DNA of 64,000 nucleotides from a virus, in the IMG/VR virus record IMGVR_UViG_3300025120_014916, positions 72,410 through 136,409 of that record; one strand, written 5' to 3'. Positions 16,867-32,162 of this stretch are shown here, one piece after another. Position numbers and translations under genes: made by a program. Numbering within the stretch: position 1 is the stretch's first letter; every line of letters begins with the position of its first letter. The notes under the pieces were generated by a model that was given only the letters and a program-made list of their open reading frames with translations, did no database searches and was not told the DNA's origin.

Positions 16867-16879
16867 CTTGCCTTATTTG

Positions 16880-18145
16880 CTAATAGTCAAAAACTTGCCA
16901 AGAAGTCTTGCTTTTGTTTTCTTTAAAATTTTTAATTGCATCAAACATTGAATTGTCCCATAAGTCAACAACCTTTTGATGTGAAAATTCTGTTCTTGCG
17001 TAATTCAAAACCTTCTTTCTTAGCTTTTTGTATTCGTAAGGTTTTCTTTTCCACATTTTATAAAGTTTCATTATACCAAACGAAGTGTTTTTATTCGTAA
17101 CATAGTCTTCATATATATACGGTACATTTTGACTCCCAACTAGTGTTTTAAGGTCTATGTTAAGTGCTACGCCATTCTCCCTTCCCGTCTTATGATCAAT
17201 AACTTGCCTAGTTAGTCCGCCTGTTTTGGCTGCAATTATAGGTGATCCTGTCATCATCGCTTCAAGTGTTGATAGGCCAAATCCTTCAGCAAAAGATATA
17301 TTAATACAAAAGTCTGTTATATTATATAGTACATTTATTTTTTCAAATTCTAAGCGTTCTCTAGAGAAAAATACATTTTGCTGAATTCCTAATTCATTGG
17401 CAGTCGCAAACAGATTAGGACCTTCCGCGTCTGTTGGCTCAGTATGCATTATTAACGTTGCTTTTCTATGCCCTTCTCTCTTTTCTAACATGTCTAAAAA
17501 CAATTTCCATGATTCAAGTACATCATTTGGTCTTTTTCTTTTTGCATTCCTGTTAACCCATATACCTACAAAATGATCGGAACGGTCTACACCTAACAAG
17601 TTAATCTTGTGTTTTCTTTTTTCTTCATCTGGTAACGGAAAAAATAAATTTTCAGGCAATGCGTGAGGGATAAAATGTGTTTTTTCTGGGTAGTACTTTT
17701 TTAACATTGTATACGTCATATGAGAATGACAGTTTATAACATCTGTGCCTTCATAGTAAGGCTCGTTAAACTTTGGAAAAGGATAATTATCCCAGACATG
17801 CCACCATACTATTGGACATACCTGATGAACCTCATCTTCCATATCAAAGAGCCACGTAAAAAATCTAGGGTCTGTAAAGATAAACAAAAGGTCGGGTTTT
17901 TCTGTGGCTAGCGTAATTCTTAACAGCTCTGGTGTTCCAAACCCATCTATTGGCTTGATTATAAAATCATCGTTAACAACAACAGTGCGATAATCACTAT
18001 GTTTCATCGCAGCTCCAAATTGTCTAAAAGTCCACCTATTTTTCTTTATAAGCCCTTCAATAAGGTGTCTTGTTTGTGTTCCAACTCCGCTGGTAGAAAG
18101 TGCATGATCTGAAAGTACTAGTACCTTAAGTTTTTTATTGTTCAT
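16880..18145 (-). CDS. Glycosyltransferase, GT4/GT-B
   Basis: SDHALSTSGVG; VNRNAKRKR; AEGFGLSTLEAMMTGSPII. Confidence 0.9.
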   Translation of the reverse strand: MNNKKLKVLVLSDHALSTSGVGTQTRHLIEGLIKKNRWTFRQFGAAMKHSDYRTVVVNDDFIIKPIDGFGTPELLRITLATEKPDLLFIFTDPRFFTWLFDMEDEVHQVCPIVWWHVWDNYPFPKFNEPYYEGTDVINCHSHMTYTMLKKYYPEKTHFIPHALPENLFFPLPDEEKRKHKINLLGVDRSDHFVGIWVNRNAKRKRPNDVLESWKLFLDMLEKREGHRKATLIMHTEPTDAEGPNLFATANELGIQQNVFFSRERLEFEKINVLYNITDFCINISFAEGFGLSTLEAMMTGSPIIAAKTGGLTRQVIDHKTGRENGVALNIDLKTLVGSQNVPYIYEDYVTNKNTSFGIMKLYKMWKRKPYEYKKLRKKVLNYARTEFSHQKVVDLWDNSMFDAIKNFKENKSKTSWQVFDY

Positions 18146-18175
18146 AAGTTTAAAATCCTCTCCAAATATATACTA

Positions 18176-18203
18176 ATTTTATACTTCTGTCATTAAAAGT
18201 AAA
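18176..18203 (-). promoter_or_regulatory. Candidate sigma70-type promoter TTTACT-N16-TAAAAT
   Basis: Read on the minus strand upstream of the GGAGAGG RBS of the 18145 gene. Confidence 0.4.
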
Positions 18204-18237
18204 CTTTTTTATAGCAGAATTAGTATACAGGCTTAAC

Positions 18238-19080
18238 TTATTTACAGTGTTCTGTGTTTAAATAGGGACAAAATTTGCAACTATGCCTATTTTTTAAAAA
18301 CATTCCTTTTCTAACAGACTTAATCATGTTTCTCATTAGCTTGACACCCTTTGCGTGAGTTTTAGGTCCTACACCTACATTTACAATATCACAAAGCTTG
18401 CCTGGCTTAGCACCTCTCTTAAGTAAAATAAAAGCGCAACGTACGTCTTTCAAGGGAATGTTGTGTTTCTTTGACCAAAAATGCTTATATAGAATAAGTT
18501 GTGCTGTCATACCTAAATCTTGCTTTTTATCTCTTCGCCATCCGTATGCTCCGGCTGTCTTCCAATCAACGATCCAGTATTCGTGACCTTTGCCTCTTTT
18601 TTTAGGAACTTTAAAAACAGCATCAATAAAGCCTTTAAAAGAAAGATCTTTGTCTAAGTTTTCTATTTCTTCATATAGCTGTTCTTCAGCTTTAAAACAT
18701 TCCCAACCTGGAAGCTGTGTATCTAAAAAACCTAACACTTCATCCCACATATTATTTGCCCAACTTTCCCATTCTTCAACAGGTTGGTGTTTATACCAGC
18801 CGGGCTGCTTAGAATACCATGTTGGGTCCTCGAAACCAGCTTTCTGCCAACTTTCTTTCATGACACCTAGTATTTTATCACGGTCAACTTTTCCTGTCTC
18901 TATAAGCGTTTCACAGCCTTCGTGGACTGCAGTTCCAAAATGAAGATAGGGACTGTCTTGAAACATATCTATCTTGTCAATGTACGTTAACTTATGACGG
19001 TAGCTACATTCTTTCCATTGTTTTATTTCAGAAAAAGATATGTGTGGTTTTCCTGTCGGAAATAATTCCTGTGTACTCAT
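18238..19080 (-). CDS. PD-(D/E)XK nuclease, RecB/AddB/Cas4-like with a 4-Cys Fe-S staple
   Basis: HISFSEIKQWKECSY, FGTAVH, KGFIDAV, IVDWKT, QLILY, C-terminal CKFCPYLNTEHC. Confidence 0.85.
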   Translation of the reverse strand: MSTQELFPTGKPHISFSEIKQWKECSYRHKLTYIDKIDMFQDSPYLHFGTAVHEGCETLIETGKVDRDKILGVMKESWQKAGFEDPTWYSKQPGWYKHQPVEEWESWANNMWDEVLGFLDTQLPGWECFKAEEQLYEEIENLDKDLSFKGFIDAVFKVPKKRGKGHEYWIVDWKTAGAYGWRRDKKQDLGMTAQLILYKHFWSKKHNIPLKDVRCAFILLKRGAKPGKLCDIVNVGVGPKTHAKGVKLMRNMIKSVRKGMFLKNRHSCKFCPYLNTEHCK

Positions 19081-19161
19081 TTTTCACCATATTATTAGAG
19101 ATATATCAAAACTGTATCAGCTATGTTAAGATATACTAAGTTTACACAAAATATATTAGAT

Positions 19162-19474
19162 TTACACAACTAGTTCTGGGTCGTACAAAGTATACTTTGC
19201 AGTTAATTCTTCGTTGGGCTGTATGTCTTTTATTGTTACTAGAAATAAATAGTCATCATCCTTTAGTATTTTACAGTTTGGCTTATTTGGATTGTGATTA
19301 AAAAACCCGCCCAGTGGAGTTCTTATGTAATTATTTATTATTTTCAAAGAGCGGGTTAAAAATATGGGTTAATCCTAAATTTGTATTTTTTTTAATACTT
19401 GCTGTTGCAAACAGACCTAATCCGTGGACTTTCGATTCTTTGATTGTTAAAGACGCTGGCAAGGGTTTAAACAT
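19162..19474 (-). pseudogene. Small SET-domain lysine methyltransferase, frameshifted by a 7-bp tandem duplication
   Basis: ATG at 19474 gives MFKPLPASLTIKESKVHGLGLFAT...FENNK*. The other frame continues NYIRTPLGGFFNHNPNKPNC...EELTAKY. ATTATTT occurs twice at 19330-19343, and removing one copy gives a 101-aa intact SET ORF. Confidence 0.85.
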
Positions 19475-20365
19475 TTAATAACTCATTATTTTTTCTGATA
19501 GTGTGTATTTGGGTGACCATCCTAAATCTTTTATAGTCTCGCTTATATCTGCAAGTGTTTCTTGAACTTCTGCCGGCCGTAAAGGAATTATATCTGTTTT
19601 CCCTCCAATCATCTCTGCTATTTCCCACATTGAATGATTTTTTCCTGTTCCGACGTTATAGACGTTAAATGGGATATCAACAGTTGATGATCTCATTGCA
19701 AGAATATTTGCTTCCACTACATCTTCGATATATGTAAAATCTCTTCTTTGTGTCCCGGGTGCAACTATGGTCATAAATTTATTATTCTTGCTTTGACGTT
19801 TAAATAAACCAATTACTGGAGCGTATTCTCCCTTGATAGGCTCTCTCGGCCCGTATACATTAAAGTATCTTAAAGTTATGCTTGGTACCCCGTAAAGCTG
19901 GTTATAAAGTTTACAAATTTGTTCACCCATCCATTTTGACATTGAATATGGGTTGAGGCAGTCTGCAGGCATATTGGGTGCAAACGGAATTGAATTCTGG
20001 TGACCATAAAGTGAAGAGGTACCTGAATATATTACTCTTTTTACAGAATGCAATCTGGACCATTCTAGGACCCTCTGCGTGCCTACTACGTTAACCTCGA
20101 AACACTCATTAGGCGCACCAATAGTTGGTTGGATGCGGCTTCTTGCTGCTAGATGAAAGACATAATCAACTGACTTGAAAATGTCGTTGCAGTCATCTTT
20201 AGATATATCTTTTTGCCAATATGTTACTTGATCATTATAATAAAATCTCTCATTTTCTTGTGCAGACAAGTCATCTATCACAACTACCTCGCAACCAATC
20301 AAAATAAGCTTATCTACTATATGGCTACCTATAAATCCGCAACCGCCTGTTACTAAACATTTCAT
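19475..20365 (-). CDS. NAD-dependent epimerase/dehydratase (extended SDR)
   Basis: VTGGCGFIGSH, FHLAA, SSLYG, PYSMSK (YxxxK), LRYFNVYGP, RDFTYIEDVV. Confidence 0.92.
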   Translation of the reverse strand: MKCLVTGGCGFIGSHIVDKLILIGCEVVVIDDLSAQENERFYYNDQVTYWQKDISKDDCNDIFKSVDYVFHLAARSRIQPTIGAPNECFEVNVVGTQRVLEWSRLHSVKRVIYSGTSSLYGHQNSIPFAPNMPADCLNPYSMSKWMGEQICKLYNQLYGVPSITLRYFNVYGPREPIKGEYAPVIGLFKRQSKNNKFMTIVAPGTQRRDFTYIEDVVEANILAMRSSTVDIPFNVYNVGTGKNHSMWEIAEMIGGKTDIIPLRPAEVQETLADISETIKDLGWSPKYTLSEKIMSY

Positions 20366-20393
20366 AATTAACCTACCTGCTATAATCTAATTT

Positions 20394-21251
20394 TTATTTT
20401 TTATTTGTACTCACTGCACCCGGGATGTCATACCAGTCTAGATCCTGTCTAACCTGTTTATTCTTTTCCCAAGCACCTTTCATAACATCAGGTGAAACGC
20501 CAAGCTCTTCTGCCTTTTTAATCATTGCATTTAGATCTTTAGGGAAGCATTTACCACCAAAGCCAAAGTCACCATCATGGCCCGGGACATCAATATGAGA
20601 GTTCCCAATTCTACCATCTGTTATAAATCCTTCAAGCGCTTTATCCCAGTCTCCACTAATAGCTTTACAAACTTGGTACATTTCATTCATAAAAGAAACT
20701 TTCGTGGCAAAAAAACAATTTGCCATGTATTTAATTAACTGTGCAGTTCCAAAATCTGTTTTTATGATGTTTGTATGTGGGAACCTTAATCTATATAAGT
20801 CTTCAACTTTTTGCAAAGATTTTTTATTATTACTGCCTAAAACAATTCTTGCAGTATTTATAAAGTCTAGTCTTGCTTTTCGCTCAGTTAGAAATTCAGG
20901 ATTGAAGACAAAATTCATGTCCGGGTATTTCGCTGCTAAACGTTCAGTCGTTCCAGGAACGACTGTTGATTTGATTACTAGTACTTGATCTTTACGCCTA
21001 TGCGTAAGCGGATAGTTGTTCATTATTTCATCAACAACACCCTCGACAATTGAAAGATCGCATTCTCCTGACTCGAACATCGGTGTTGGTACGCAAATAA
21101 ATACAACGTCTGAGTGTAAAATCAATTCACATAAGCTATGTGTAGACCGCTTTGGGTCTTTGTCATGTATCATTATATCATCTGAATGGAGCATGAAGCC
21201 GTGTATTATTGCGGAGCCTACAAACCCGTTACCTATTATTCCAATTTTCAT
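20394..21251 (-). CDS. UDP-glucose/GDP-mannose dehydrogenase family, short form without the C-terminal domain
   Basis: GIIGNGFVG, FICVPTP, KSTVVPGT, FNPEFL, KYMANCFFATKVSFMNE, GFGGKCFPKD. Confidence 0.88.
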   Translation of the reverse strand: MKIGIIGNGFVGSAIIHGFMLHSDDIMIHDKDPKRSTHSLCELILHSDVVFICVPTPMFESGECDLSIVEGVVDEIMNNYPLTHRRKDQVLVIKSTVVPGTTERLAAKYPDMNFVFNPEFLTERKARLDFINTARIVLGSNNKKSLQKVEDLYRLRFPHTNIIKTDFGTAQLIKYMANCFFATKVSFMNEMYQVCKAISGDWDKALEGFITDGRIGNSHIDVPGHDGDFGFGGKCFPKDLNAMIKKAEELGVSPDVMKGAWEKNKQVRQDLDWYDIPGAVSTNKK

Positions 21252-21264
21252 AATCTAACCTTTT

Positions 21265-21858
21265 TTATTTTTGAGCAATTATTGTACTGTTGACATAGTA
21301 AGCATTTTCTGATATTACGTTTCCGCTAAAGATAGATTTAACCATGTCATTAGGTAGGTATTGAATCTTTTTAAACTCTTCACTTCTTCTATCAGTTGGA
21401 TTGTTGATCATGTGTATCATCATCTTATAATTACCTGTTTTTTCTTTTAACAGTATTTTTGAAAATTTTTCAACTAAAACTGCTAAACCCTCTGTTGTAA
21501 ATCGCCAAAAGTCGGTAGGGTGTGGGTGTTCTTGGTAGAAAAAGGGTGAAGTTATTATAATTATACCACCCGGCTTAAGCACACGATAAGCTTCGTCTAC
21601 GCATATCCATGGCTTTCTAACATGTTCTAAAACCTGGTCAAAAGCAACACAATCGTATTCGTCGTCTTTATACGGTAGTTTATGAGCATCAACTTCAGGA
21701 TAATCAGCTCTTGTTACGTTTTTATAGAAATTTGACCAATGAGGTGTATGACCACTAATTTCTAAAATTTTTTCATTTTTAATCGTACTGTCGCTTGCAA
21801 TAATATTGCTTAAAAATTGCTGCGTTTTTACAAGATACTCTATTCTTGTGCATTTCAT
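21265..21858 (-). CDS. Class I SAM-dependent methyltransferase
   Basis: KILEISG, DAHKLPY, QVLEHV, YRVLKPGG, HPTDFWRFT. Confidence 0.8.
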   Translation of the reverse strand: MKCTRIEYLVKTQQFLSNIIASDSTIKNEKILEISGHTPHWSNFYKNVTRADYPEVDAHKLPYKDDEYDCVAFDQVLEHVRKPWICVDEAYRVLKPGGIIIITSPFFYQEHPHPTDFWRFTTEGLAVLVEKFSKILLKEKTGNYKMMIHMINNPTDRRSEEFKKIQYLPNDMVKSIFSGNVISENAYYVNSTIIAQK

Positions 21859-21872
21859 TACATTTCCTTTTT

Positions 21873-22631
21873 TTAAATTTTTGCTTTTTCAATCTCACCA
21901 AATACGCTTAGATATTTTGTGTGGAAAAATTGTAAATTTTCTATCGGCATTGTTTTATCATCTAGAAATCTAAAATCATTGTATTTAAAACAATCATCAT
22001 TACCCATATTGTTCATTTTTTCATTGTTATAAAAATTAATTGCGTAAGCTGCTATTTTGCGTATATCATCATCATTAAAATTAAATAAATTTGCATGACC
22101 CCTGTTGATCCTGTTTATGATAACATTACAAATTTTACTCGGGTATTGCTCAAAATCATGAAGATTTGTTACAACATCATACGTTTTCCATGAAGCATCC
22201 TTTCTTTTGTTTGTGAATAAAGAAATAAAATCAGACTCAGGTTTTTTTGAGTTCGGTACAACGATATTCTTAAAAGCGTCTACTAATTCTTTTTTGTATA
22301 TAACGGGTGTTCCGCCTCTATATTTTTTCATTAAACAGTCATAGTATAACCCTTCAGAGCATAAAACATGTTTATCATTAATTGTTAAATCGACTAATGT
22401 ATCGAGTCCTTTATAGACTAATCGATCAGCGTCAGATCTAATTACAAGATCATAGTTTTCTAAATTTTCAATACAGTATTTTCTAAACTTATCTAATTTT
22501 TGATAAAAAGAAATACTTTCGTTATCAACAACAATGTCATTGTAGCCTAACTTTTCAAAACAGTATCTTGACAATTCTTTTGTTCTTTCATCTAGTGATG
22601 TTATATAAATCAAGCATTTCTTTTTATTCAT
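21873..22631 (-). CDS. Putative GT-A-fold glycosyltransferase
   Basis: YDLVIRSDAD (DxD after a beta strand) and sugar-island context only. Confidence 0.45.
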   Translation of the reverse strand: MNKKKCLIYITSLDERTKELSRYCFEKLGYNDIVVDNESISFYQKLDKFRKYCIENLENYDLVIRSDADRLVYKGLDTLVDLTINDKHVLCSEGLYYDCLMKKYRGGTPVIYKKELVDAFKNIVVPNSKKPESDFISLFTNKRKDASWKTYDVVTNLHDFEQYPSKICNVIINRINRGHANLFNFNDDDIRKIAAYAINFYNNEKMNNMGNDDCFKYNDFRFLDDKTMPIENLQFFHTKYLSVFGEIEKAKI

Positions 22632-23538
22632 TTGACAACCTCATAATTAAAGTGTCACACATCCCAAGCGAAGCCAGCTTATTACCGTATGCCTCATTTA
22701 GATTATCACTGTTTAAAAAGTCGTAAACTTTGTGACCATTTGGTTTGTTTTTTTGTAGCCAATGTATGTGATTTGATGGTGGAAATCTTTGGATTTGTTT
22801 TACATAGTCGACTTTGTAACCTGCTTTTTCTCCAATAACTCTTAAACTTTTCTGACTGTAATAATACAGATGGCACGTCCAAAAATACCAGTCTCTAAAA
22901 TCTTGAATGTCATATAAATCAAGTAGTGCGTCATTAATGTTGGGCACTTCAATAATTATTTTACCACAATCTTTTAAATTTTTTTTAAGCTTTTTCAATT
23001 CTGATATTGGGTCTTTAATGTGTTCCATAACATGAAAACATGTTATGAAATCAAATTTTTTACTCACCCTGTCTAGACTATGATGAATCGGTATGTCAAG
23101 ATCTACAAAGCTATTTTTTAAGTAGTGTATTAGATGAGTGTCAGGTTCAACCCCCACTACTGAGTTACAAAATTGATTAATCTTATTTATAAAGCCACCA
23201 GCGCCGCAACCGTAGTCCAATACAGACTTGTTTGCGACACTATTGACGAGCATGTTTTTTCTTCGTTCGTCGTCAAAATTTGCATTCTTTTTCCAAGATT
23301 CGAATTTTTCAAAATTAGTAATTTGTTGCTTGCTTAAAAACCTATCATTTTTTAGCATTTTTGAGTTTTCGTAAAAGTCGCCCTCAATAATGTGATCGTG
23401 GTGTGACAAGAATACAAAATCGCAATCATTACATTTTAAAATTTTAAAGTCTAATTCGGGTTTTACATCGACGTCTCTTATTTTAGTTGGAATGCACGCA
23501 ATGTTCATTGATTCACACAAATAACATTTTTTAATCAT
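22624..23538 (-). CDS. Class I SAM methyltransferase with an N-terminal Zn-binding motif
   Basis: CYLC...CNDC, VLDYGCGAGGF, FDFITCFHVMEHI, IIIEVPN, HLYYYS. Confidence 0.85.
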   Translation of the reverse strand: MIKKCYLCESMNIACIPTKIRDVDVKPELDFKILKCNDCDFVFLSHHDHIIEGDFYENSKMLKNDRFLSKQQITNFEKFESWKKNANFDDERRKNMLVNSVANKSVLDYGCGAGGFINKINQFCNSVVGVEPDTHLIHYLKNSFVDLDIPIHHSLDRVSKKFDFITCFHVMEHIKDPISELKKLKKNLKDCGKIIIEVPNINDALLDLYDIQDFRDWYFWTCHLYYYSQKSLRVIGEKAGYKVDYVKQIQRFPPSNHIHWLQKNKPNGHKVYDFLNSDNLNEAYGNKLASLGMCDTLIMRLSNE

Positions 23539-24202
23539 TTCTATTTTCCTTTCTGTTTAAAGATTGACGTAACAACATTTCAGCATACTCAAAATCATCT
23601 TTATCGTCGATATCGATTGACTCGAAATTATTTAGTATAATTGTCTTACAATTGTCTGATGTTCTTGCGTTAGAATCTAATACACAGTTCTTGTAACCGT
23701 ATATTCCGGATGTTTCAACAAGCACAGGTAAAAGATCCTGTGTCTTAGGTCTAGGTAAAGAAAAATTGATTTTTTCATCATTGAACCAGCAAAAAGTTTT
23801 AATTTTACTCACAGAAGCTACTGATTCGAAGTTATCTTTACACAGAAAGTCTATTGAGCGTTGGTAACTTGAGAGTTTTATAAACGGAGACGTGCAGTGA
23901 GTTAAAATGTAATTATCAGCAGGAATAATTTTTCTAAACTCCTTGTATATCTGGATTCCTAAAACATCATCATGATCAAATCTTTTATCTCTGTCTAAAA
24001 AAAATATATTTTTACTGTCAAAGTCTATCTTTTTCTTAAGAAGTTCACAATCGCTTGAGAAAACATAAACAGGAACATCTAATTTGTCAAGTGTTTCCAA
24101 GCTCCAGCAAAATAATGGTCGACCTAATAAATTTTTAATGCTTTTATTCTTAAGCCTAGTTGAGTTTATTTTTATTGGCATTAAAAATACTAGATCTTTC
24201 AT
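23531..24202 (-). CDS. Acylneuraminate/ulosonate cytidylyltransferase (NeuA / CMP-KDN-synthetase type)
   Basis: PIKINSTRLKNK..LLGRPL, HCTSPF, KTQDL, ETSGIY, SIDIDDKDDF. Confidence 0.88.
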   Translation of the reverse strand: MKDLVFLMPIKINSTRLKNKSIKNLLGRPLFCWSLETLDKLDVPVYVFSSDCELLKKKIDFDSKNIFFLDRDKRFDHDDVLGIQIYKEFRKIIPADNYILTHCTSPFIKLSSYQRSIDFLCKDNFESVASVSKIKTFCWFNDEKINFSLPRPKTQDLLPVLVETSGIYGYKNCVLDSNARTSDNCKTIILNNFESIDIDDKDDFEYAEMLLRQSLNRKENRND

Positions 24203-24774
24203 TTATTCCGCTCCCTATCCTTAATAATTTTTTTACCAATTGAACCTGCAGGGTGGTTTCTTTGGTAGTCTTGTATTGAACATTTTCTTCTTATAACTGT
24301 CTCGCATAATATACCGTGTAAGCATATCATGTACAATGTAGTTGACATCATGGGCGCGTATCCAAACGGTGAAGATTCTCTTTCTACAGGGATGTGAATA
24401 TTGTTTTTACACATCTTTGTTAAAGAAGACTTTTCATCGCTCGTAACAGATACAGTTTCCCATTTTTTGAAATATTTAGCGACGTCGATTGTTTCTTTTG
24501 TTTCTCCTGACTTAGAAACAAAAACAAGTAAGTCACCTTCTTTGATCAACCCAGCATCTCCGTGAAAAGCATGACACACGTCTAAATCATGCCAGTCTAG
24601 GCTGTAAGATCTAGCTGTGTATACTATTTTTCTGCATGCAAAAGCACTTTTACCCATCGTGCAGAATATTACTCTGCTATAATTACAAAATATATCAATT
24701 GAACTTTTAATTTCACGATAACTAGGGATATTACTTACTGAGTGTATTGCCTCGCTTAAATGTTGATCGTACAT
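24199..24774 (-). CDS. kdsD: SIS-domain sugar-phosphate isomerase, KdsD/KpsF/GutQ-like, without CBS domains
   Basis: TMGKSAF, AFHGDAG, VSKSGETKE, APMMSTT, RNHPAGSIG. Confidence 0.82.
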   Translation of the reverse strand: MYDQHLSEAIHSVSNIPSYREIKSSIDIFCNYSRVIFCTMGKSAFACRKIVYTARSYSLDWHDLDVCHAFHGDAGLIKEGDLLVFVSKSGETKETIDVAKYFKKWETVSVTSDEKSSLTKMCKNNIHIPVERESSPFGYAPMMSTTLYMICLHGILCETVIRRKCSIQDYQRNHPAGSIGKKIIKDRERNK

Positions 24775-24775
24775 T

Positions 24776-25561
24776 TTAGTTCACCGCTTTTTTTATCTTT
24801 ACACATTTTTTAATTATTTTTTCAATATTTGACATGTCAAGCATAGACATGCTATCGCTTAATGCTGAATTGGGGTCTGGGTGTGTTTCTATGAAAAGAC
24901 CATCTGCACCTGCTGCAATTGCTGCATAACACATTGTCGATATTAACTCAGGATCGCCACCGGTGATACCATCGCTTCTATTTGGCTTCTGCAAACTATG
25001 TGTGCAATCAACAATAACATTGCTACAATATTTTTTAATTTTCGGTATGTTTGTAACGTCAACAATTAAGTCTGAGTAGCCAAACGTATTACCTCTTTCT
25101 GTTATGAAAATCTTGTCTTTACCTGCTTTTTTTACTTTTTCATAGGCATACTTCATTGTTATGTGAGAAGCAAATTGACCTTTTTTTATATTAATTGATA
25201 AACCTGAATTTGCTGCTGCTAATAACAATTCTGTCTGTCTGCATAAAAATGCAGGAATCTGGACGTGACTGACATAGTCTTTGACAATATCTACATCTTT
25301 GCATTCGTGTATATCAGTGATGACAGGCAAATCAAATTTTCCGCTTACTTCTTTTAGAATATTAAGCGCTTCTTCATCACCTATACCCGTAAATGAATTA
25401 ATTTTTGTCCTATTTGCTTTTTTATATGAAGCCTTAAAGATTAATTCAATATTATTTTCATTGCAAATTCTTTTTAAGTGTTCTGCTATTTTAAAGACAG
25501 TGTTTTTGCTTTCAATAACGCACGGGCCGGCAATTAGTTTAAAGTTGTACTTATTTTTCAT
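24776..25561 (-). CDS. kdsA: 3-deoxy-8-phosphooctulonate (KDO8P) synthase, metal-dependent type
   Basis: IAGPCVIES, FKASYKKANRT, QIPAFLCRQT, NIKKGQF, TERG, DCTHSLQ, GLFIETHPDP..ALSD. Confidence 0.95.
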   Translation of the reverse strand: MKNKYNFKLIAGPCVIESKNTVFKIAEHLKRICNENNIELIFKASYKKANRTKINSFTGIGDEEALNILKEVSGKFDLPVITDIHECKDVDIVKDYVSHVQIPAFLCRQTELLLAAANSGLSINIKKGQFASHITMKYAYEKVKKAGKDKIFITERGNTFGYSDLIVDVTNIPKIKKYCSNVIVDCTHSLQKPNRSDGITGGDPELISTMCYAAIAAGADGLFIETHPDPNSALSDSMSMLDMSNIEKIIKKCVKIKKAVN

Positions 25562-25564
25562 CTT

Positions 25565-25885
25565 TTATAAATCCTTTATTAGTGCTAATAAATCTTTATT
25601 TTTTCCTTTTTCCCATCTAAAGCCTCTATCATCAACAAACAAATCGCAGTTAATCTTATTCATAACCAAACCAGTATAATTCAAACCGGCTTCTTTAAGA
25701 AAATTATCTGTGTATTTAAAGTGTTTAAAGTGTCTGGCAGTAAAAATGTATATTTCATGACCTTTTTCATATAAGTCATTTACCAAATTAATCATATCAG
25801 GGTACAGAAAAGAATCTTTGTAATTCTTTTCCGGAGAACCTTGTGATGCTAACGTATTATCTAAATCAAAAGCTATTCTTATCAT
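25565..25885 (-). CDS. Minimal HAD-family phosphatase (candidate KDO8P phosphatase)
   Basis: IAFDLDNTL (DxD), FTAR, NK, FVDDR motifs. Confidence 0.8.
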   Translation of the reverse strand: MIRIAFDLDNTLASQGSPEKNYKDSFLYPDMINLVNDLYEKGHEIYIFTARHFKHFKYTDNFLKEAGLNYTGLVMNKINCDLFVDDRGFRWEKGKNKDLLALIKDL

Positions 25886-25891
25886 GTTAAC

Positions 25892-25919
25892 ATTATACTT
25901 TTCTTTATCTAAATGTACA
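25892..25919 (-). promoter_or_regulatory. Candidate sigma70 promoter TGTACA-N16-TATAAT, 6 nt before the ATG (leaderless)
   Basis: Minus strand reads ATGTACATTTAGATAAAGAAAAG-TATAAT-GTTAAC-ATG; no SD. Confidence 0.5.
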
Positions 25920-25924
25920 TTAAT

Positions 25925-27043
25925 TTAAATTATTTTATTTTCTACCAAGTAGTTTATAATATTTTTATCAGCTTCTATTTCTATTTTGTGCTTATAGTCT
26001 TTATTCTTGCTAGGTCTATCTTTAATTGATGTTATTTTTTCTTTTATTTCATCAATTCCACTAGTTACAATTGTTACTTTTCCGGAAAGCTCTTGTTTAA
26101 GCGTATCAATTGCAAACTTATTGTGATTATTTGATTGGTCTGAGTTGTATACGATTATGTTTTCTGCGTTTTTTATGTAAGCACTGTCAACAAAAGAAGA
26201 TGTTATACCTAAAAGTAAAATTAAATGTGATTCTTTAAACATTGTCATCATAGCACTGGGGAAAAATAGATCTCTTTCTATTACTATGTCAGGTTTTGCA
26301 TCGATAGCAAGCTTGTGAAGTACTGTATGACTTTCGTTGAACGGGTATCCTTTTTCTCTTCTTTTCCAAACTACTGTATATCCCGCTTGTTTTAAAAAAA
26401 TTATAATCTCTTGAATGTTATTTACAAGAGTACTTTCATCTTCTTCTTTCCTGAACCATCTTTCAGGTATAAAACATACTTTTTTACTACTGATATCTTT
26501 TATTAGCTTTTCTGTATTGCTATTATTGTTATATTTAAACTGACTAAGCCTAGTATTGCCCAAGTATAAACAGTTTTGCACTTTATTTTTAAACAAGAAG
26601 TCTTCATCAATCTTATAACGTGCAATATTTAAAATAATTTTATTTTTATATGGGCTTCTATGAAAAGTTTGTATTGCATCGTAACTCCAAGTAAAATGTA
26701 TTATTTTATCAGGAACCTTAGGTATCCAAGTAGGATATTTATGCCAAACACCTTGAATAAATGCCACGTTAGGTTTTCTTTTGTCAAAAATATTTTCAAA
26801 TTTTATTTTATCATTTTGACCAAAAAAATCAATATCAGATTCGGGTATTACTATATTATTTTTAGCAAGTGTATCTTTGATGAAATTAATTATTTCATTT
26901 TTTTCATAATAATAGAATTGTCTTTTTTTACTTAAACAATCAAAAATGCATATCCAGGGTTTATATCCCTTATTTATTGATTCTATTAATGTTGTAAACA
27001 TATCTTGGAAATCAACGATTCCTGTGAAGTAAAATGCTATCAT
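25925..27043 (-). CDS. Putative GT-B-fold glycosyltransferase (unassigned)
   Basis: Two Rossmann-like halves; KVCFIPE...YTVVWKRRE...HLILLLGITSSFVDS loosely recalls KxHP/SST-type transferases; context. Confidence 0.4.
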   Translation of the reverse strand: MIAFYFTGIVDFQDMFTTLIESINKGYKPWICIFDCLSKKRQFYYYEKNEIINFIKDTLAKNNIVIPESDIDFFGQNDKIKFENIFDKRKPNVAFIQGVWHKYPTWIPKVPDKIIHFTWSYDAIQTFHRSPYKNKIILNIARYKIDEDFLFKNKVQNCLYLGNTRLSQFKYNNNSNTEKLIKDISSKKVCFIPERWFRKEEDESTLVNNIQEIIIFLKQAGYTVVWKRREKGYPFNESHTVLHKLAIDAKPDIVIERDLFFPSAMMTMFKESHLILLLGITSSFVDSAYIKNAENIIVYNSDQSNNHNKFAIDTLKQELSGKVTIVTSGIDEIKEKITSIKDRPSKNKDYKHKIEIEADKNIINYLVENKII

Positions 27044-27699
27044 TTTTTTGTTCCTTGCAAAATAATATAAAGTTGTGGGTTGTCATCCCACAGAGGCATA
27101 CAGAAGACAGATATGTTTTTAAACATTTCTTCAACATCGTTTAAATTTATAATTGTGGGTACTTCGCTTTGTATAGCATTTTCCAAATCATCATAACCAT
27201 ATTTTTTAATTCTGTCAGAAAATACTTTGACGCCTTCTTGATTCAGAAAGCTTTTATCCCAAAGGCATGAAGCTATATAGTTACCTTCAAAATAACATTG
27301 TTCTTTTTCATTTTCATCTTGGAATCCCACTCTAAACTTTTTATATCTTAAGTGATCGCCTAAACCCCAGTCAACAAATATTCTACCACCAGGATTTAAA
27401 AAATTATTAATTTCAGAAATAAACTTTTTTGGATTATTAGAAAAGTAAGGACATCTTGTGCACACAATTAAGTCAAACTTCTTATCAAATTTGTATGGGA
27501 AGCTATTTATATTCCAGTTTTCCATGCTTATGTCGTAAAATTCTCTAATTTCAGACTTTATTTGCTTTGTAAATGTATTTTCTTTATCTTGCCCTAAAAA
27601 ACAAATAGACTTTACATTATTTTTAATATTAAATTGAGTGGTATAAAAATTAAAAAAATTCTCATATACATCAAAAACATAAGGGTCTGATTTTCCCAT
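27040..27699 (-). CDS. Class I SAM-dependent methyltransferase
   Basis: KFDLIVCTRCPYF, FLNPGGRIFVD. Confidence 0.72.
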   Translation of the reverse strand: MGKSDPYVFDVYENFFNFYTTQFNIKNNVKSICFLGQDKENTFTKQIKSEIREFYDISMENWNINSFPYKFDKKFDLIVCTRCPYFSNNPKKFISEINNFLNPGGRIFVDWGLGDHLRYKKFRVGFQDENEKEQCYFEGNYIASCLWDKSFLNQEGVKVFSDRIKKYGYDDLENAIQSEVPTIINLNDVEEMFKNISVFCMPLWDDNPQLYIILQGTKK

Positions 27700-27700
27700 T

Positions 27701-28432
27701 TTATAATTCCCTTAAGAAACAAAATTGCTTTTCTTTTTGTTGTTTTAAAAAGCTTATAAGCTTATTTGATAGATTAGTTGATAAATAATTTTTGTCCCAT
27801 TCACAAGCATGATATACTATTTCTGTCTTTTCATATAACTTTAGTTCATCAAATGGCGGATTTACATTATAATAAACAACATTTTTAAAATCTTCATCTT
27901 TTTTGCAATAAGTTTTTTTTGCGTACTCTTTGGGCGACAAAGCTAACAATTCAATCCCTATATCTGATGCTGCCTGTATTGCTTCTGGCGACATTCGCCA
28001 CGCAGGTGGCCTAAAAATATTTTTAAATTCGTTTTTTAAATTAGCTAACTTGACAACTTCAAACATTGCTTTGAATGTCTGAACAGACTGATCGTAATTT
28101 AAATTATTAAATTCGTCATTGTCACTTTTTCCCGGTATTCCGTGATAAAATCCGTGATAGCATATTTCAAAATTTAATTTAGGTAAGTTTCTAAGCTCAT
28201 TACAGAATTCTGGAAATTTATTAATCTGTAACGGTATCGACGTGGTTGTCCCGGGTTTGATTGTCCGCCAGTAAGATAATGGTACAAATAATGAAAATTT
28301 TACTTTAGGAAACTCACTAATGACTTCAAAGCAACGATCCAAAACCTTAGTGGAAGACATTGGGTGTGGCGATATGTCATCAATACTAATGTTAACTTTA
28401 TACATAGGACTCTCCATTTTTAATATTTTCAA
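27701..28432 (-). CDS. Polysaccharide deacetylase family (NodB-like / DUF2334)
   Basis: NISIDDISP, YHGFYH, FRPPAW motifs. Confidence 0.75.
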   Translation of the reverse strand: MKILKMESPMYKVNISIDDISPHPMSSTKVLDRCFEVISEFPKVKFSLFVPLSYWRTIKPGTTTSIPLQINKFPEFCNELRNLPKLNFEICYHGFYHGIPGKSDNDEFNNLNYDQSVQTFKAMFEVVKLANLKNEFKNIFRPPAWRMSPEAIQAASDIGIELLALSPKEYAKKTYCKKDEDFKNVVYYNVNPPFDELKLYEKTEIVYHACEWDKNYLSTNLSNKLISFLKQQKEKQFCFLREL

Positions 28433-29348
28433 TACACTTGATGTACATCATGATTGACGTATTTATTCTTTCATTGTATTTTAATACATTTGACTTAAAT
28501 TTACCAAAATTGTCTATTATTGTTTCAGCTGATTGTATAAAACCATTAATGTCATTATAACTTAAACCGTAGTCTTTACAGTATTCGTTTATTGAGCCAC
28601 CCTTATCATGATATATTACAGGCAAACCTGCCGCCATTGCCTCTAATACATGATTTGCTCCGGCTTCCTCTACTGATGCTGTCAAGTATATGTCATACGT
28701 TGGTAGCATTTCAGATAAAATTATTTCGTCTACTGGTTCTATTAAGTTCCAGCCTTCATTGCTGAAGTCTTTGTTGTATCTGCCGATATAAGTTAATTCA
28801 AAATCTTTTTTAGAAAGCTTTCCAAGTTTTGAATAAATACCTACTTTATTATAAAAATCAAACCCTTTTTTTTCATTTGTCGACCAATGATGTGTAACAA
28901 TCTTTATTTTTTTACCTATTTTTGAATTAATTCTTTTATTGTAAAATATATCCAAAGGTTTGTTTTCAATAATTTTAAAGTTATTTCCTTTATAACTCAA
29001 GTATTCTCTTGACCAATTACTTGGAAAAATAAATAAATCTGTATAACCTGCGTCTATGATCGCTTTTAAAAGATATGTTAACTCAGGTTTTGAGTGTGTA
29101 CCAACGTCACCCACTCTTTGGATTATAACTGTATTTGGATTGTTACGTTTATAGTTGACAAAATGTTCATACCATATACTACTTTGGTTTGGTCTAGGGT
29201 CATAACAAAAAATTACATCAATATTCTTTTCTAGTTCAAAGACTACTTTATGATTTCGTGACATCAATGCTTTGCAAAGCTCTGTTAATGTTTTGTTTCC
29301 TCCGCCCCAGGGTCCAATTGTGGGTTTTCTATTAATATATATTTTCAT
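28398..29348 (-). CDS. Glycosyltransferase, GT4/GT-B
   Basis: GPWGGGN, DIYLTASVEEAGANHVLEAMAAGLPVIY. Confidence 0.85.
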   Translation of the reverse strand: MKIYINRKPTIGPWGGGNKTLTELCKALMSRNHKVVFELEKNIDVIFCYDPRPNQSSIWYEHFVNYKRNNPNTVIIQRVGDVGTHSKPELTYLLKAIIDAGYTDLFIFPSNWSREYLSYKGNNFKIIENKPLDIFYNKRINSKIGKKIKIVTHHWSTNEKKGFDFYNKVGIYSKLGKLSKKDFELTYIGRYNKDFSNEGWNLIEPVDEIILSEMLPTYDIYLTASVEEAGANHVLEAMAAGLPVIYHDKGGSINEYCKDYGLSYNDINGFIQSAETIIDNFGKFKSNVLKYNERINTSIMMYIKCIENIKNGESYV

Positions 29349-30415
29349 AAAAAATCTTTATGCCTTGATATCTTTATTTTATCCAAAAACTCATTTAAAT
29401 TATCTCCTACACATAAGTGTGGGCATTTCTTTACGTCGAGTTTATTTAAAACTTCTTTTCTTTTTTTACCATGCCATATCTCATAAAAACTTTTAAATTT
29501 TATATTACCTAAGTAGCCTTCACTCTTACCAGTTAGAGAACAACATATATATAGATCGCCTGTTGCAGTAATTGTTGTCGACTTAAAAGATTGTGCATGA
29601 CAAACATTATAGCTTCTACATGTTCCTTGACCAGACAATATTTTTTTATATTTACCTTCATCAATTATTACCTTGAACTTATCATCTTCGTATGTCATAG
29701 CATCACAAAATATTCTATTTAATTCTTCAGAGTCTACAGACTTGTAATCGTATAAAAACCCGAAGCTAGGTCTTAACTGAGCATAGTCTAAACCACATAT
29801 TTTGCATAACTTGATAAATTTATATAATTCTCTATCCATTTCAGGATATTGATTTGTTATATAGCCTGCGCCTAATGTCACAGAAAGATTTTGTTTTGTT
29901 TTGATTCTAGCAAGAAGCTTCATGTTTCTTACTGTTAATGCAAAATTTGCTGTCTTTCCATGTGTTTTCTTATGTGTTTCAATGCTAAATGCATCAAGCG
30001 ATATTCTAATCCACTCAAACATGCATAATAATTCTTCCATAGGCCATTTATCAAATCTAGATCCGTTACATATAAGACCTATTTTAAAACCTTTTTCATG
30101 TGTTAGTCTAATTATTTTATCAAATTGCTTATGTGTCGTTGGTTCCCCACCGCCCGTATAATTAATACCTTTTACACCACATTTCTTAAGACTGTCTAAT
30201 AAACCTTCGAATAGGTCGAAGCTTAAACTATTGTTATCGTTGTGGATCAATTCATAATCAATGCACCCTGGACAGTCATGATTACAAACGTTTGTTAGAT
30301 CGATTTTAATATTAACCGGACCGGATGTGTCTCCATGCGCGTACCATTCAGCGTACTTAGCTGGATGATTTAACACCTTATTACCTTTTAAAAAACTCAT
30401 TTTATTAATACACAC
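29345..30415 (-). CDS. Radical SAM protein with a SPASM/Twitch domain
   Basis: DLTNVCNHDCPGC (CxxxCxxC), TGGGEPT, IRISLDA, C-terminal CHAQ..ATGDLYICC..GNI..SFYEIW..C. Confidence 0.9.
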   Translation of the reverse strand: MCINKMSFLKGNKVLNHPAKYAEWYAHGDTSGPVNIKIDLTNVCNHDCPGCIDYELIHNDNNSLSFDLFEGLLDSLKKCGVKGINYTGGGEPTTHKQFDKIIRLTHEKGFKIGLICNGSRFDKWPMEELLCMFEWIRISLDAFSIETHKKTHGKTANFALTVRNMKLLARIKTKQNLSVTLGAGYITNQYPEMDRELYKFIKLCKICGLDYAQLRPSFGFLYDYKSVDSEELNRIFCDAMTYEDDKFKVIIDEGKYKKILSGQGTCRSYNVCHAQSFKSTTITATGDLYICCSLTGKSEGYLGNIKFKSFYEIWHGKKRKEVLNKLDVKKCPHLCVGDNLNEFLDKIKISRHKDFL

Positions 30416-31337: not shown

Positions 31338-31339
31338 TT

Positions 31340-32035
31340 TTAGCCTCCTTTAAGAAAATCTTCATACAATCTAGAGGTTTTCTGGTGTATGTTTTCTGGG
31401 TCTTTTGATATATTATCAATTTGTTCTTTTTCTAGAAAACTATAGATTAATCTTATCGATTTTTTATCTTTATTTTCTGGAATGACAGCATGCAAACCCG
31501 ATGTATCAAAAAGTATCGCTTTACCTTTACTGGGTTTTACTATCCGTTGTTTTAAAAGTCCAAATATCTGCCTATCATATGTATTATCCGGAAAGATCAG
31601 CCTATTCGATCCTTCCAAGTAAGCTAGCCTACCATGATCTTTTTCACTCTCATCAAATATAGGATAATATATTATTTTAACACCTGCAGGTGCATGCCCT
31701 ATCAAGTTTCCCTTTTGATTATAATACGTATCCCTATGCCAATTCATATAGCTATTTTCATCTTCAACAATTCTGATCTGGATGTGAAACAAAGTTAAGT
31801 CTCTTAGCGTAGCCTTTCTAATTGTTGATTTTATATCGTTTTTCTTCAAAACGTTTAAAAAACAAGGATCATATGAAATTACATTCGGTCTTAAATCATA
31901 AGTTTTGTTATACTTTGATTTAAGAAAATAATCATCTTTTACTTTAAGCTCTAAAATTTCACTTAGGATATCTTCTAGTAATTCATCTTGGAAGTCGACA
32001 TCAGTTATACCACTTTTATAAAATGACTTGTACAT
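31340..32035 (-). CDS. 2OG-Fe(II) oxygenase / PhyH-like protein
   Basis: WHRD (HxD), GRLAYLEGSN, ILFDTSGLHAV, RLIYSF. Confidence 0.65.
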   Translation of the reverse strand: MYKSFYKSGITDVDFQDELLEDILSEILELKVKDDYFLKSKYNKTYDLRPNVISYDPCFLNVLKKNDIKSTIRKATLRDLTLFHIQIRIVEDENSYMNWHRDTYYNQKGNLIGHAPAGVKIIYYPIFDESEKDHGRLAYLEGSNRLIFPDNTYDRQIFGLLKQRIVKPSKGKAILFDTSGLHAVIPENKDKKSIRLIYSFLEKEQIDNISKDPENIHQKTSRLYEDFLKGG

Positions 32036-32162
32036 TTAAACACTCTTTTTTCTAATAACGATTAGATATATTCTTAAAAATATATATTTCTAAGTAACCG
32101 TGCTGATTTTTATTAGTTTTTAGATTTCTTTTATTAAAAATTTTAGTTAGTTTTTTCACTTT

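Follow-up and report, generated by a model that had tools for sequence, protein, structure and literature searches.

The window analyzed here is a stretch of 64,000 nucleotides (positions 72,410 to 136,409 of IMG/VR record IMGVR_UViG_3300025120_014916) from an uncultured marine jumbo phage. The contig of 136 kb corresponds to about 40% of the phage genome, and the absence of a gene from it is therefore weak evidence. Between positions 23531 and 25885 there are four intact open reading frames, all on the minus strand, co-directional and tightly packed, which code for a HAD phosphatase, KdsA, a SIS-domain isomerase and a cytidylyltransferase (CT), and both the ORF list and the HMM matches confirm the four-gene cassette described in the initial annotation. 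The tight junctions reported there are also found, with a 3 nt gap between the HAD gene and kdsA, a 1 nt gap between kdsA and the isomerase gene, and a 4 nt ATGA overlap between the isomerase and CT genes. Comparison with the relative L106 gives dN/dS values of 0.04–0.26 for the cassette genes, showing that purifying selection acts on these genes and that they are not ORFs arising by chance. The four linked genes can be assigned to families, with their catalytic residues conserved, as described below.

KdsA (24776..25561, minus strand; 261 aa) is a metal-dependent KDO8P synthase, as judged by equivalog HMMs and aligned ligands. It scores 335.2 bits against NCBIfam model NF003543 (cut-off 242) and 325.2 bits against TIGR01362 (cut-off 314), its best PDB match is the Aquifex aeolicus KDO8PS (232 bits), and its GPC, CTH and ETH..SD segments align with the Cys/His/Glu/Asp metal ligands of that enzyme (C11/H185/E222/D233). 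It also has the sequence KANRT, matching the KANR(S/T) motif that separates KDO8P synthases from DAHP synthases, and the latter score only 83–97 bits; a DAHP-type identity, which the initial annotation had named as a possibility, is rejected by sequence. The kdsA dN/dS is 0.10 relative to L106, and KdsA is the sole ulosonate synthase encoded on the 136 kb contig.

The HAD gene (25565..25885, minus strand) encodes a 106 aa mini HAD-superfamily phosphatase that is a candidate KDO8P phosphatase from its motifs and context. All four HAD catalytic motifs are present in the translation (D7-L-D9-N-T11, i.e. DLDNT in agreement with DxDxT; T49; K77; and D85-D86), but the HMM matches are weak, N-terminal and to HAD-IIIA/IIB models, with the generic HAD-IIIA N-terminal match at 37.6 bits (cut-off 44.6), and the best PDB match is 9iqw, a 134 aa 'capsule biosynthesis protein' (2.5e-5). 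No KdsC-type model was matched in Pfam and NCBIfam profile searches, and with only the sub-cut-off HAD-IIIA match a KdsC identity is rejected; the HAD step of the pathway proposed initially is thus retained as a fold and not as a KdsC-type enzyme. Homologues of the mini-HAD lie directly after kdsA in other loci (L014, L031, L038, L042, L109, L114 and L117), and it is from this context that we infer a role as the KDO8P phosphatase.

The third gene (24199..24774, minus strand) codes for a 191 aa single-SIS-domain arabinose-5-phosphate (A5P) isomerase, identified by HMM matches and PDB motif alignment. It matches PF01380 (5.8e-16) and the SIS half of the KpsF/GutQ model TIGR00393 (3.7e-25), for which its 89 bits are below the full-length cut-off of 203.7; a profile search for the architecture of SIS plus two CBS domains found no CBS domain in the protein. 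The best PDB matches are single-SIS-domain entries, namely 5uqi (a phosphosugar isomerase), 3etn from B. fragilis, which has been named as an A5P isomerase (API; PMC13326640), 3fxa (a SIS domain protein) and 2xhz (an arabinose 5-phosphate isomerase). The GKS, HGD, SxSGET (SxSGE(T/S)) and HP(G/A)G motifs align with those of all four entries, which include characterized A5P isomerases.

The CT gene (23531..24202, minus strand) encodes a 223 aa protein that is NeuA/CMP-Kdn-synthetase-like by profile, predicted fold and tree, and is a candidate CMP-Kdo(-type) synthetase. It scores 26 bits against PF02348 (CTP_transf_3; cut-off 22.6), and its best NCBIfam match is PseF (TIGR03584; 9e-10, 38.6 bits), under the equivalog cut-off of 205.7. 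A KdsB/KpsU identity, evaluated with models TIGR00466 and PRK05450 and by tree placement, is rejected; the KdsB model matches residues 5–47 only, at 20 bits against a cut-off of 193, whereas true phage KdsBs reach 200–276 bits. When the CT family profile is compared with the PDB the match to the PpNeuA CMP-Kdn synthetase is 2.3e-14 and to murine CMAS 2e-11, with 5.7e-5 the best value for KdsB. An AF2 model (pLDDT 91) gives Foldseek TM scores of 0.82 to 9t4z and 0.81 to 1qwj, compared with ≤0.72 to KdsB. The P-loop R/K and the DxD are conserved, and the TSPF, TQDL and IDID motifs are all in the translation, so the NeuA-type motifs and class claimed for the activating enzyme at the outset are borne out. 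Its dN/dS relative to L106 is 0.04, it is the sole CTP_transf_3 gene on the contig, and neither a KdsB nor a NeuB (PF03102) match was found on these 136 kb (~40% of the genome).

In the tree, the KdsB clade is separate from the CT clade with 100% support, and nearly all members of the window CT's clade with known gene context adjoin kdsA. This KdsA-linked clade covers marine phage contigs, a Limisphaerales exopolysaccharide (EPS) locus and CroV-like giant-virus contigs, with the NeuB-linked CTs branching basally to it. One exception is L014b, a kdsA-adjacent CT that groups with the NeuB-linked enzymes, and adjacency to kdsA is therefore an imperfect predictor of CT clade. A second distinguishing feature is at position 102, where a His replaces the Gln of the QxTSP motif (Gln110 in PpNeuA), which is strictly conserved in CMP-sialate synthetases (PMC12934254) and contacts O8 and the N-acetyl group in those enzymes. 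His102 is invariant across the 16-member CT family, and the KdsA-linked CTs of bacteria and giant viruses have His as well; the NeuB-linked CTs of L013 and L015, and also L014b, retain Gln. R180 of the phage CT occupies the Kdn gatekeeper (C5-OH) site, a position at which Arg selects sugars with a C5 hydroxyl (PMC12934254).

The search for the four-gene cassette suggested in the initial annotation was run on metagenomes, and the whole cassette recurs in L004, L106 and L110; related CTs occur with SIS-KdsA(-miniHAD) in L109, L113, L114 and L117. In the Limisphaerales EPS locus the arrangement is KdsA-KpsF-CT-methyltransferase, with 40–44% identity to the phage proteins, and the same genome also has a canonical KdsB, indicating that mere replacement of KdsB does not account for the NeuA-like CT in that genome. 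The initial annotation cited CroV as the precedent for viral Kdo genes, and the rarity this implied is overstated: kdsA and kdsB are present in cyanophage S-SCSM2R (PMC12801897), NeuA and KdsA in a marine viral genome described in 2017 (PMC5332604), kdsA/kdsB are included in marine AMG lists (PMC10653327), and kdsA is on at least 580 IMG/VR contigs. As judged from the sequences, the combination of a NeuA-type enzyme with KdsA is shared by giant viruses, other marine phages and a few bacteria.

The cassette is part of a larger co-directional glycan island of approximately 27 genes and 23 kb (14276..37728, minus strand), defined by profile searches of gene content. The island codes for six GT1/GT4-type (Glycos_transf_1) and two GT2 glycosyltransferases, five methyltransferases, a radical SAM/SPASM protein, an SDR epimerase, a short UDP-Glc dehydrogenase-like ORF, a cupin, a DUF2334 protein and a PD-(D/E)XK nuclease; a baseplate wedge gene and genes for giant Laminin_G_3 proteins border it, and tail-fibre-like genes lie on either side. 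There are no polytopic membrane proteins in the island, and a flippase, polymerase, ligase and lipid-carrier primase are all absent from it. Likewise, the contig (~40% of the genome) has no match to the Kdo transferase families PF04413 (GT30 WaaA), PF05159 (KpsC/KpsS) and PF00777 (GT29).

Three of the neighboring genes are of particular relevance. First, a 304 aa SAM methyltransferase (Methyltransf_23; 22624..23538, minus strand; PF13489, 9.7e-27) overlaps the CT gene by 8 nt and is translationally coupled to it; it is 93% identical in L004/L106, and in L003, L005 and L007 there are likewise methyltransferases bordering the module. Second, a 252 aa protein (21873..22631, minus strand), whose gene overlaps that of the methyltransferase by 8 nt, has no Pfam or NCBIfam family match and in the Atlas matches nothing but 'hypothetical' phage clusters, apart from a weak hint of GT2; a relative with 33% identity is in the same position in L004. 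Third, a 372 aa orphan (25925..27043, minus strand) is a candidate transferase on the basis of a predicted GT-B fold. It has no Pfam or NCBIfam match, belongs to a six-member family and is syntenic in L004/L106. Its AF2 model (pLDDT 79) matches UDP-GlcNAc 2-epimerase/NeuC at Z 17–19 and many GT-B glycosyltransferases at Z 14–17, so the fold does not discriminate between these functions; Atlas features point towards a TagF-like CDP-glycerol transferase cluster (0.97).

The best explanation, to which we give a probability of roughly 70%, is that the cassette is a self-contained supply of a CMP-activated Kdo-type sugar, made by way of the NeuA-like CT and feeding a phage-specified glycan island. 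The route proposed initially, from ribulose-5-phosphate through A5P, KDO8P and Kdo to a CMP-sugar, is supported by the family assignments of the four products, and from these and the gene context we infer the substrates, the HAD role, methylation, transferase and acceptor. The single-domain SIS enzyme would convert host ribulose-5-phosphate to A5P, the metal-dependent KdsA would condense this with PEP to give KDO8P, and the mini-HAD would take off the 8-phosphate to yield Kdo. The CT, rather than a KdsB, would then activate this eight-carbon 2-keto-3-deoxy acid sugar with CMP, and would represent a distinct KdsA-associated subfamily common to bacteria, tailed phages and CroV-like giant viruses. 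A possible task of the coupled methyltransferase is to O-methylate the sugar, either ahead of its transfer or afterwards, and the CMP-sugar would feed the soluble glycosyltransferases and methyltransferases of the island to build a phage-specified glycan. The lack of a flippase, polymerase, ligase and lipid-carrier primase, together with the tail-fibre and baseplate setting, makes a cytoplasmic acceptor such as virion proteins more likely than a self-exported pathway. The coexistence of KdsB in the Limisphaerales and the recurring adjacent methyltransferases lean slightly towards the CT being a dedicated or modified-Kdo activator as opposed to a plain non-orthologous replacement.

The alternative that survives best, and which we nevertheless consider unlikely, is an AMG role in which the cassette would only boost the CMP-Kdo pool of a Gram-negative host for LPS or capsule, with host WaaA or KpsS/C and host export placing the glycan on the envelope of the host, where it could serve, for instance, in masking or in the exclusion of superinfecting phages. 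Marine viral kdsA and kdsB are listed as AMGs and are so read for T4-like phages (PMC10653327, PMC9529941, PMC12801897, PMC5332604), a true kdsB accompanies kdsA in other phages, and no phage-encoded Kdo transferase is recognized on the contig. However, the activator here is not KdsB, the eight glycosyltransferases and five methyltransferases of the surrounding island imply a phage-specified product, membrane and export components are absent from the island, and it lies among tail-fibre and baseplate genes. Activation by the CT of a nine-carbon nonulosonic acid (Kdn, Pse or Leg) that comes from the host or from genes in the 60% of the genome not on the contig, with KdsA, SIS and HAD functionally separate, seems improbable. 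There is no NeuB on the 136 kb, NeuB is present in 0 of 23 related metagenome loci, the window CT's clade is linked to KdsA whether in phages, bacteria or giant viruses, the SIS and CT genes overlap by ATGA, and the Gln that contacts O8 and N-acetyl is swapped for an invariant His; set against these are the closest characterized CT relatives, which are CMP-Kdn and CMP-Neu5Ac synthetases, the more distant viral CT relatives, which adjoin NeuB and the same type of mini-HAD, and a contig only ~40% complete. Hypermodification of phage DNA by the island, including its Kdo-type sugar (as glycosylated hydroxymethyl- or hydroxy-pyrimidines), with the A5P isomerase for nucleotide-sugar supply, is highly implausible, since KdsA commits A5P to an octulosonate, which is not known as a DNA adduct, and the contig (~40% of the genome) has no thymidylate-synthase/dCMP-hydroxymethylase-like or TET/JBP gene (the TET model matched no control genome either). 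The 3etn-type phage A5P isomerases do feed DNA arabinosylation in arabinosyl-hydroxycytosine phages (PMC13326640), and the island has the PD-(D/E)XK nuclease and two GT4 proteins matching the 'GT4-conflict' model, but the arabinosylation route is a UDP-arabinose pathway and not one that uses a CMP-transferase.

Returning to the CMP-Kdo-type supply for a phage glycan, we suggest only tentatively that the His-for-Gln KdsA-linked CTs could be a third octulosonate-activating class besides KdsB/KpsU, acting on Kdo or on an O-methyl-Kdo that KdsB cannot handle, and that the 372 aa GT-B orphan could place the product on virion proteins as an acidic LPS-like coat. CroV and Fadolivirus are the only published viral examples of this design, a prediction since 2010 in giant-virus systems that are hard to work with, whereas in the phage the four proteins are small, soluble and unfused and can be produced in E. 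coli; the phage system offers a simple test of Kdo activation by a sialic-acid-type enzyme and could also show what the recurrent methyltransferases do. If correct, there would be a new class of CMP-octulosonate synthetase with a clear sequence signature and better annotation of genes now called 'NeuA' or 'CMP-NeuAc synthetase', as well as Kdo-type glycans made by a marine phage lineage without export genes of its own, with a bearing on virion glycosylation and phage-host recognition in the ocean.

Comparison with the canonical KdsD-KdsA-KdsC-KdsB pathway (and its capsule paralogues KpsF/KpsU) shows the same predicted intermediates, a clear KdsA orthologue, and a phage SIS catalytic domain homologous to KdsD/KpsF. 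It differs in that the phage isomerase lacks the CBS pair, neither the phosphatase nor the activator is of the canonical type (KdsC and KdsB/KpsU, respectively), and the contig is without WaaA or KpsC/KpsS. Phages with kdsA+kdsB pairs, including cyanophage S-SCSM2R (PMC12801897), huge phage LR756500.1 and IMG/VR contigs such as L018/L020, have a kdsA 40–58% identical to that of the window and adjoining the activating enzyme, and often also a single-domain SIS isomerase and methyltransferase, but in them a genuine KdsB, scoring over the NCBIfam cut-offs, is the activator, and there is no mini-HAD. The PpNeuA CMP-Kdn synthetase (9t4z) and other CMP-sialic acid synthetases are the best profile and fold matches of the phage CT; PpNeuA shares with it the P-loop Arg/Lys, TSP motif, RxQD, DxD metal site and gatekeeper Arg (PMC12934254), but identity is ~20%, Gln is changed to His, and the genomic partner is KdsA and not a NeuB-type synthase. 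The closest cellular relative is the exosortase-type EPS locus of the Limisphaerales MAG (L097), in which KdsA (43%), API, NeuA-like CT (40%) and Methyltransf_23 are in the same order as in the phage; ahead of them come an SDR epimerase and a UDP-Glc dehydrogenase, a feature shared with the phage island. In L097, however, the API has CBS domains, there are exosortase and acyltransferase_3 membrane components, the mini-HAD is missing, and KdsB is elsewhere in the genome.

The viral counterparts are CroV (crov265-267) and Fadolivirus, which have a predicted Kdo pathway with an activator placed by phylogeny with CMP-NeuAc synthetases and, in CroV, fused to a methyltransferase (PMC9614988). The initial citation of CroV as a precedent thus holds but understates the likeness, as its predicted activator is itself of the NeuA type with a fused methyltransferase, the same design as the phage cassette. 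Clustering of a KDO8P synthase, A5P isomerase, HAD and NeuA-type CT with attached or adjacent methyltransferases is seen in CroV, Fadolivirus and GVMAG contigs (L005–L007) and in the phage. There are informative differences. The giant-virus genes are fused (KdsA and CT alongside a KdsC-like HAD::SIS::CBS fusion in GVMAG contigs; CT::MTase and KdsA::MTase in CroV). In the phage, by contrast, the four small ORFs are separate, none of these bifunctional fusions (HAD::API, CT::MTase, KdsA::MTase) occurs, and the methyltransferase too is an ORF of its own that overlaps the CT gene. The HAD of the phage is a 106 aa mini-HAD and not KdsC-like, the phage API lacks CBS domains, and the phage KdsA is of the Cys (metal) type as opposed to the Asn (metal-independent) type of the GVMAGs; the hosts are a bacterium and protists respectively. 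The GVMAG CTs are nonetheless 35–39% identical to the phage CT and share its His-for-Gln signature, and in both the giant viruses and the phage, each known as a prediction, the module lies inside a larger glycogene cluster.

The four genes of the cassette follow one another on the reverse strand, with the small HAD-superfamily phosphatase (mini-HAD, 106 aa) at 25885..25565, KdsA (261 aa) at 25561..24776, the SIS protein (191 aa) at 24774..24199 and the cytidylyltransferase (CT, 223 aa) at 24202..23531. The first two junctions are gaps of 3 nt and 1 nt and the third is a 4-nt overlap (ATGA), and the ORF listing matches exactly both the extent (23531–25885) and the tight junctions given in the initial annotation. 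Transcription in the same direction would continue into a Methyltransf_23 gene (23538..22624, reverse strand), which overlaps the CT gene by 8 nt and is itself overlapped by 8 nt by a 252-aa ORF (22631..21873, reverse strand) to which Pfam, NCBIfam and Atlas-type searches could assign no family. No tRNA genes lie in the window (GC ~31–35%), and a promoter/terminator scan resembled that of shuffled sequence (93 vs 95, and 10 vs 7.5). The window covers positions 72410–136409 of a 136,409-bp IMG/VR viral contig with an estimated completeness of ~40%, and the presence of baseplate-wedge and PhoH genes identifies it as part of a jumbo tailed phage.

KdsA exceeds two NCBIfam equivalog cut-offs (NF003543, 335 bits against 242; TIGR01362, 325 bits against 314), and among solved structures it is closest to the metal-dependent KDO8P synthase from Aquifex aeolicus (232 bits), with which its Cys/His/Glu/Asp ligands and KANR(S/T) motif align. 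DAHP synthases score no higher than 97 bits, ruling out that alternative and bearing out the earlier assignment as a KDO8P synthase. The 191-aa protein is a single SIS domain matching the SIS half of KpsF/GutQ (3.7e-25). Its closest solved structures are all single-SIS-domain proteins (5uqi, 3etn, 3fxa and 2xhz), of which 3etn has been named a Bacteroides fragilis A5P isomerase (PMC13326640; B. fragilis) and 2xhz was deposited as an arabinose 5-phosphate isomerase; the GKS, HGD, SxSGET and HP(G/A)G motifs of these relatives are kept. All four HAD motifs are present in the 106-aa protein, which matches only generic HAD models and 9iqw, a 134-aa 'capsule biosynthesis protein', and is not KdsC. 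A search for fusions of this mini-HAD type found just two multidomain proteins, both NTP_transferase-like.

The activating enzyme had been described as NeuA-type rather than KdsB, and profile, predicted fold and tree agree on this. It belongs to CTP_transf_3 (26 bits, cut-off 22.6); its top NCBIfam match is PseF (9e-10, far under the cut-off), and its likeness to KdsB is confined to residues 1–47. A profile built from 16 sequences of the CT family and run against the PDB finds the PpNeuA CMP-Kdn synthetase (9t4z) at 2.3e-14 and the murine CMP-Neu5Ac synthetase at 2e-11, with KdsB no better than 5.7e-5 and at the N-terminus only. The AlphaFold model (pLDDT 91) superposes best on 9t4z (TM 0.82) and 1qwj (TM 0.81), compared with TM ≤0.72 for KdsB structures. 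The same profile recovers 180 cluster representatives at E ≤1e-30, some of them fused with SIS, HAD, HMGL-like aldolase or radical-SAM domains.

Residues of the PpNeuA active site were mapped onto the CT through an HMM alignment, with a chain numbering offset of +18 at which the identities of all three residues check. Gln110 of PpNeuA is strictly conserved in CMP-sialate synthetases and contacts O8 and the N-acetyl nitrogen in co-crystals, and the C5 pocket is formed by Leu109, Tyr183 and Arg196, the last of which prefers a C5-OH (Kdn) over N-acetyl sugars (PMC12934254). In the CT, His102 replaces Gln110, while Tyr168 and Arg180 correspond to Tyr183 and Arg196; where PpNeuA has Arg196, the murine Neu5Ac enzyme carries Leu. 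His102 is invariant across the 16 sequences, and His at this position is common to bacterial and giant-virus CTs linked to KdsA. Gln is retained in L014b, a CT that adjoins KdsA, and in two NeuB-linked viral CTs (L013 and L015). In an alignment at ~20% identity, these residues would fit a non-acetamido sugar with a side chain unlike that of a nonulosonate.

A maximum likelihood tree of the CTs, with characterised NeuA and PseF sequences outside it and compared by PDB profile scores, places true KdsBs in a separate clade with 100% support and the NeuB-linked CTs in a basal position. The 42-row group with the window's enzyme holds all the other KdsA-linked CTs, namely those of the viral contig L004, the two metagenome-assembled loci L097 and L098, the giant-virus metagenome contigs L005 and L006, and L007 and L042. 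L014b is an exception in that it adjoins KdsA yet clusters with the NeuB-linked CTs. Gene context was examined in viral contigs, bacterial genomes and metagenome loci. L004 has the same four genes, a counterpart of the 372-aa ORF upstream of our cassette, and methyltransferases; L005, L006 and the similar L007 have KdsA, a CT that is 35–39% identical, and a KdsC-like HAD::SIS::CBS fusion; and L097 (Limisphaerales) and L098 ('Cyanophyceae') encode UDP-Glc dehydrogenase, exosortase, KdsA, KpsF, a CT (40% identical), a 482-aa protein and Methyltransf_23. We note that L097 and L098 are near-identical in sequence and gene order despite their different phyla, and one bin assignment is probably wrong. 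Among 23 related metagenome loci the CT adjoins SIS and/or KdsA, with or without the mini-HAD, in eight, and NeuB is found in none; L106 is syntenic with the window over 15 genes, and L110 has its exact gene order.

CT relatives at 24–28% identity instead accompany NeuB and the same type of mini-HAD. Four viral contigs (L016, at 234–2027, L010, L013 and L015) combine a NeuA-like CT, this mini-HAD and a NeuB synthase, and are phage nonulosonic-acid pathways in which the synthase alone differs from the Kdo-type module. The related phage L014 (5986–11871 of IMGVR_UViG_3300030430_005214, 104 kb) shows a further variation: its syntenic glycan island encodes two PseF-like CTs, a DegT aminotransferase, a DHQ-synthase/Fe-ADH-like enzyme, a GmhA-like SIS_2 isomerase, KdsA and a mini-HAD, a set that may yield an amino-octulosonate (Kdo8N-like) or other modified sugar.

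Comparison of 22624–27043 with L106 (5170–9579) gives dN/dS values of 0.10 for KdsA, 0.26 for SIS, 0.04 for CT and 0.07 for the methyltransferase. The genes fall into two groups: SIS, CT and the methyltransferase have dS of 0.34–0.41, and amino acid identities within this group are 98, 93 and 85%, with 93% for the methyltransferase, whereas HAD, KdsA and the 372-aa ORF are saturated for dS, with identities of 79, 70 and 64% within the group. This difference indicates a recombination breakpoint within the cassette, between the SIS gene and kdsA.

Homology and conserved linkage give good support to the Kdo biochemistry originally proposed for the cassette, and the most likely mechanism is a route from Ru5P to a CMP-octulosonate. 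The SIS enzyme would convert Ru5P to A5P, KdsA would convert A5P to KDO8P, the mini-HAD would release Kdo, and the NeuA-like CT would form the CMP-octulosonate, to be consumed by soluble transferases of the surrounding island. Five settings have methyltransferases beside the module: the window, the Limisphaerales locus, huge phage LR756500.1, the giant-virus metagenome contigs and CroV, the last with methyltransferase fusions of both the CT and KdsA (PMC9614988). In the Limisphaerales genome the cluster KdsA is the sole one above cut-off, and a canonical KdsB is encoded elsewhere. This recurrence and coexistence suggest that the NeuA-like CT has an activating role of its own, possibly on a methylated Kdo, and does not simply stand in for KdsB.

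The co-directional island (~14.3–37.7 kb) encodes eight glycosyltransferases (six GT1/GT4-type and two GT2), five methyltransferases, a radical SAM/SPASM enzyme, an SDR epimerase, a short UDP-Glc dehydrogenase-like ORF, a cupin, DUF2334 and a PD-(D/E)XK nuclease. The dehydrogenase-like ORF (20394–21251, reverse strand, 285 aa; UDP-glucose/GDP-mannose type) has the N-terminal and central domains without the C-terminal UDP-binding domain; since it is of equal length and 77% identical in L004 and L106, it is a conserved short form and not a fresh truncation. The nuclease and two GT4s, both matching 'GT4-conflict' (PF20706), form a block (15691–19080, reverse strand) kept in L014, L108 and L113, and the radical SAM/SPASM gene (29345–30415, reverse strand), with a GT4 gene on one side and unknown ORFs on the other, is kept in L106. 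The 372-aa ORF (25925..27043, reverse strand), directly upstream of HAD, has a predicted GT-B fold with structural matches to UDP-GlcNAc 2-epimerase/NeuC (Z 17–19) and many glycosyltransferases (Z 14–17), and Atlas features hint at TagF-like CDP-glycerol transferases; as the fold fits all three alike, we did not adopt it as a Kdo transferase.

The island is flanked by a baseplate wedge gene and very large reverse-strand proteins (1–3906, >1302 aa; 5103–8585, 1160 aa; 37798–43629, 1943 aa), two of them with Laminin_G_3 (ConA-like lectin) domains; these are probably fibre or baseplate-associated and are possible glycan acceptors or binders. A hydropathy scan found no polytopic membrane protein among 29 ORFs in or beside the island. 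On the 136-kb contig there is a single KdsA and a single CTP_transf_3 gene, and NeuB, the WaaA N-domain, a KpsC/KpsS domain and GT29 are all absent, although absences are weak evidence on an incomplete contig. Because export machinery is lacking and structural genes lie nearby, we tentatively favour an acceptor in the cytoplasm, for instance virion proteins, whose glycosylation is described as shown for mycobacteriophages in work cited in PMC12619734; remodelling of the host envelope is possible if the product were passed to host machinery. DNA hypermodification we reject, as hydroxymethylase and TET genes were not found on the contig (a thymidylate-synthase-like gene is absent, and the TET/JBP search was empty with a model also silent in every control genome) and KdsA commits the pentose to an octulosonate.

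Real kdsA genes occur in no more than a handful of 50,697 phage records, which a tblastn search with the CT did not match at all, and blastn of the region matched only 231 bp of kdsA in LR756500.1. kdsA is present on at least 580 IMG/VR contigs, and among the best 80 of these a KdsB-type CT accompanies it in 11, a single-domain SIS in nine, a mini-HAD in four and a NeuA-like CT in two. Previous reports include kdsA and kdsB in S-SCSM2R, called the 'first in a cyanophage' (PMC12801897), a 179-kb marine environmental viral genome encoding NeuA, KdsA and WaaG (PMC5332604), and a list of surface-ocean viral AMGs with kdsA and kdsB (PMC10653327). Of the systems described so far, the nearest is the predicted Kdo pathway of CroV and Fadolivirus, whose activator is phylogenetically a CMP-NeuAc and not a CMP-Kdo synthetase (PMC9614988); each has a NeuA-type activator, but the phage genes are unfused. 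The novelty is moderate, the cassette being an unfused phage form of a viral design already known as a prediction. Our analysis contributes two points: the activating enzyme falls in a coherent KdsA-associated clade that takes in bacteria, phages and giant viruses, and this clade has a recognisable active-site signature.
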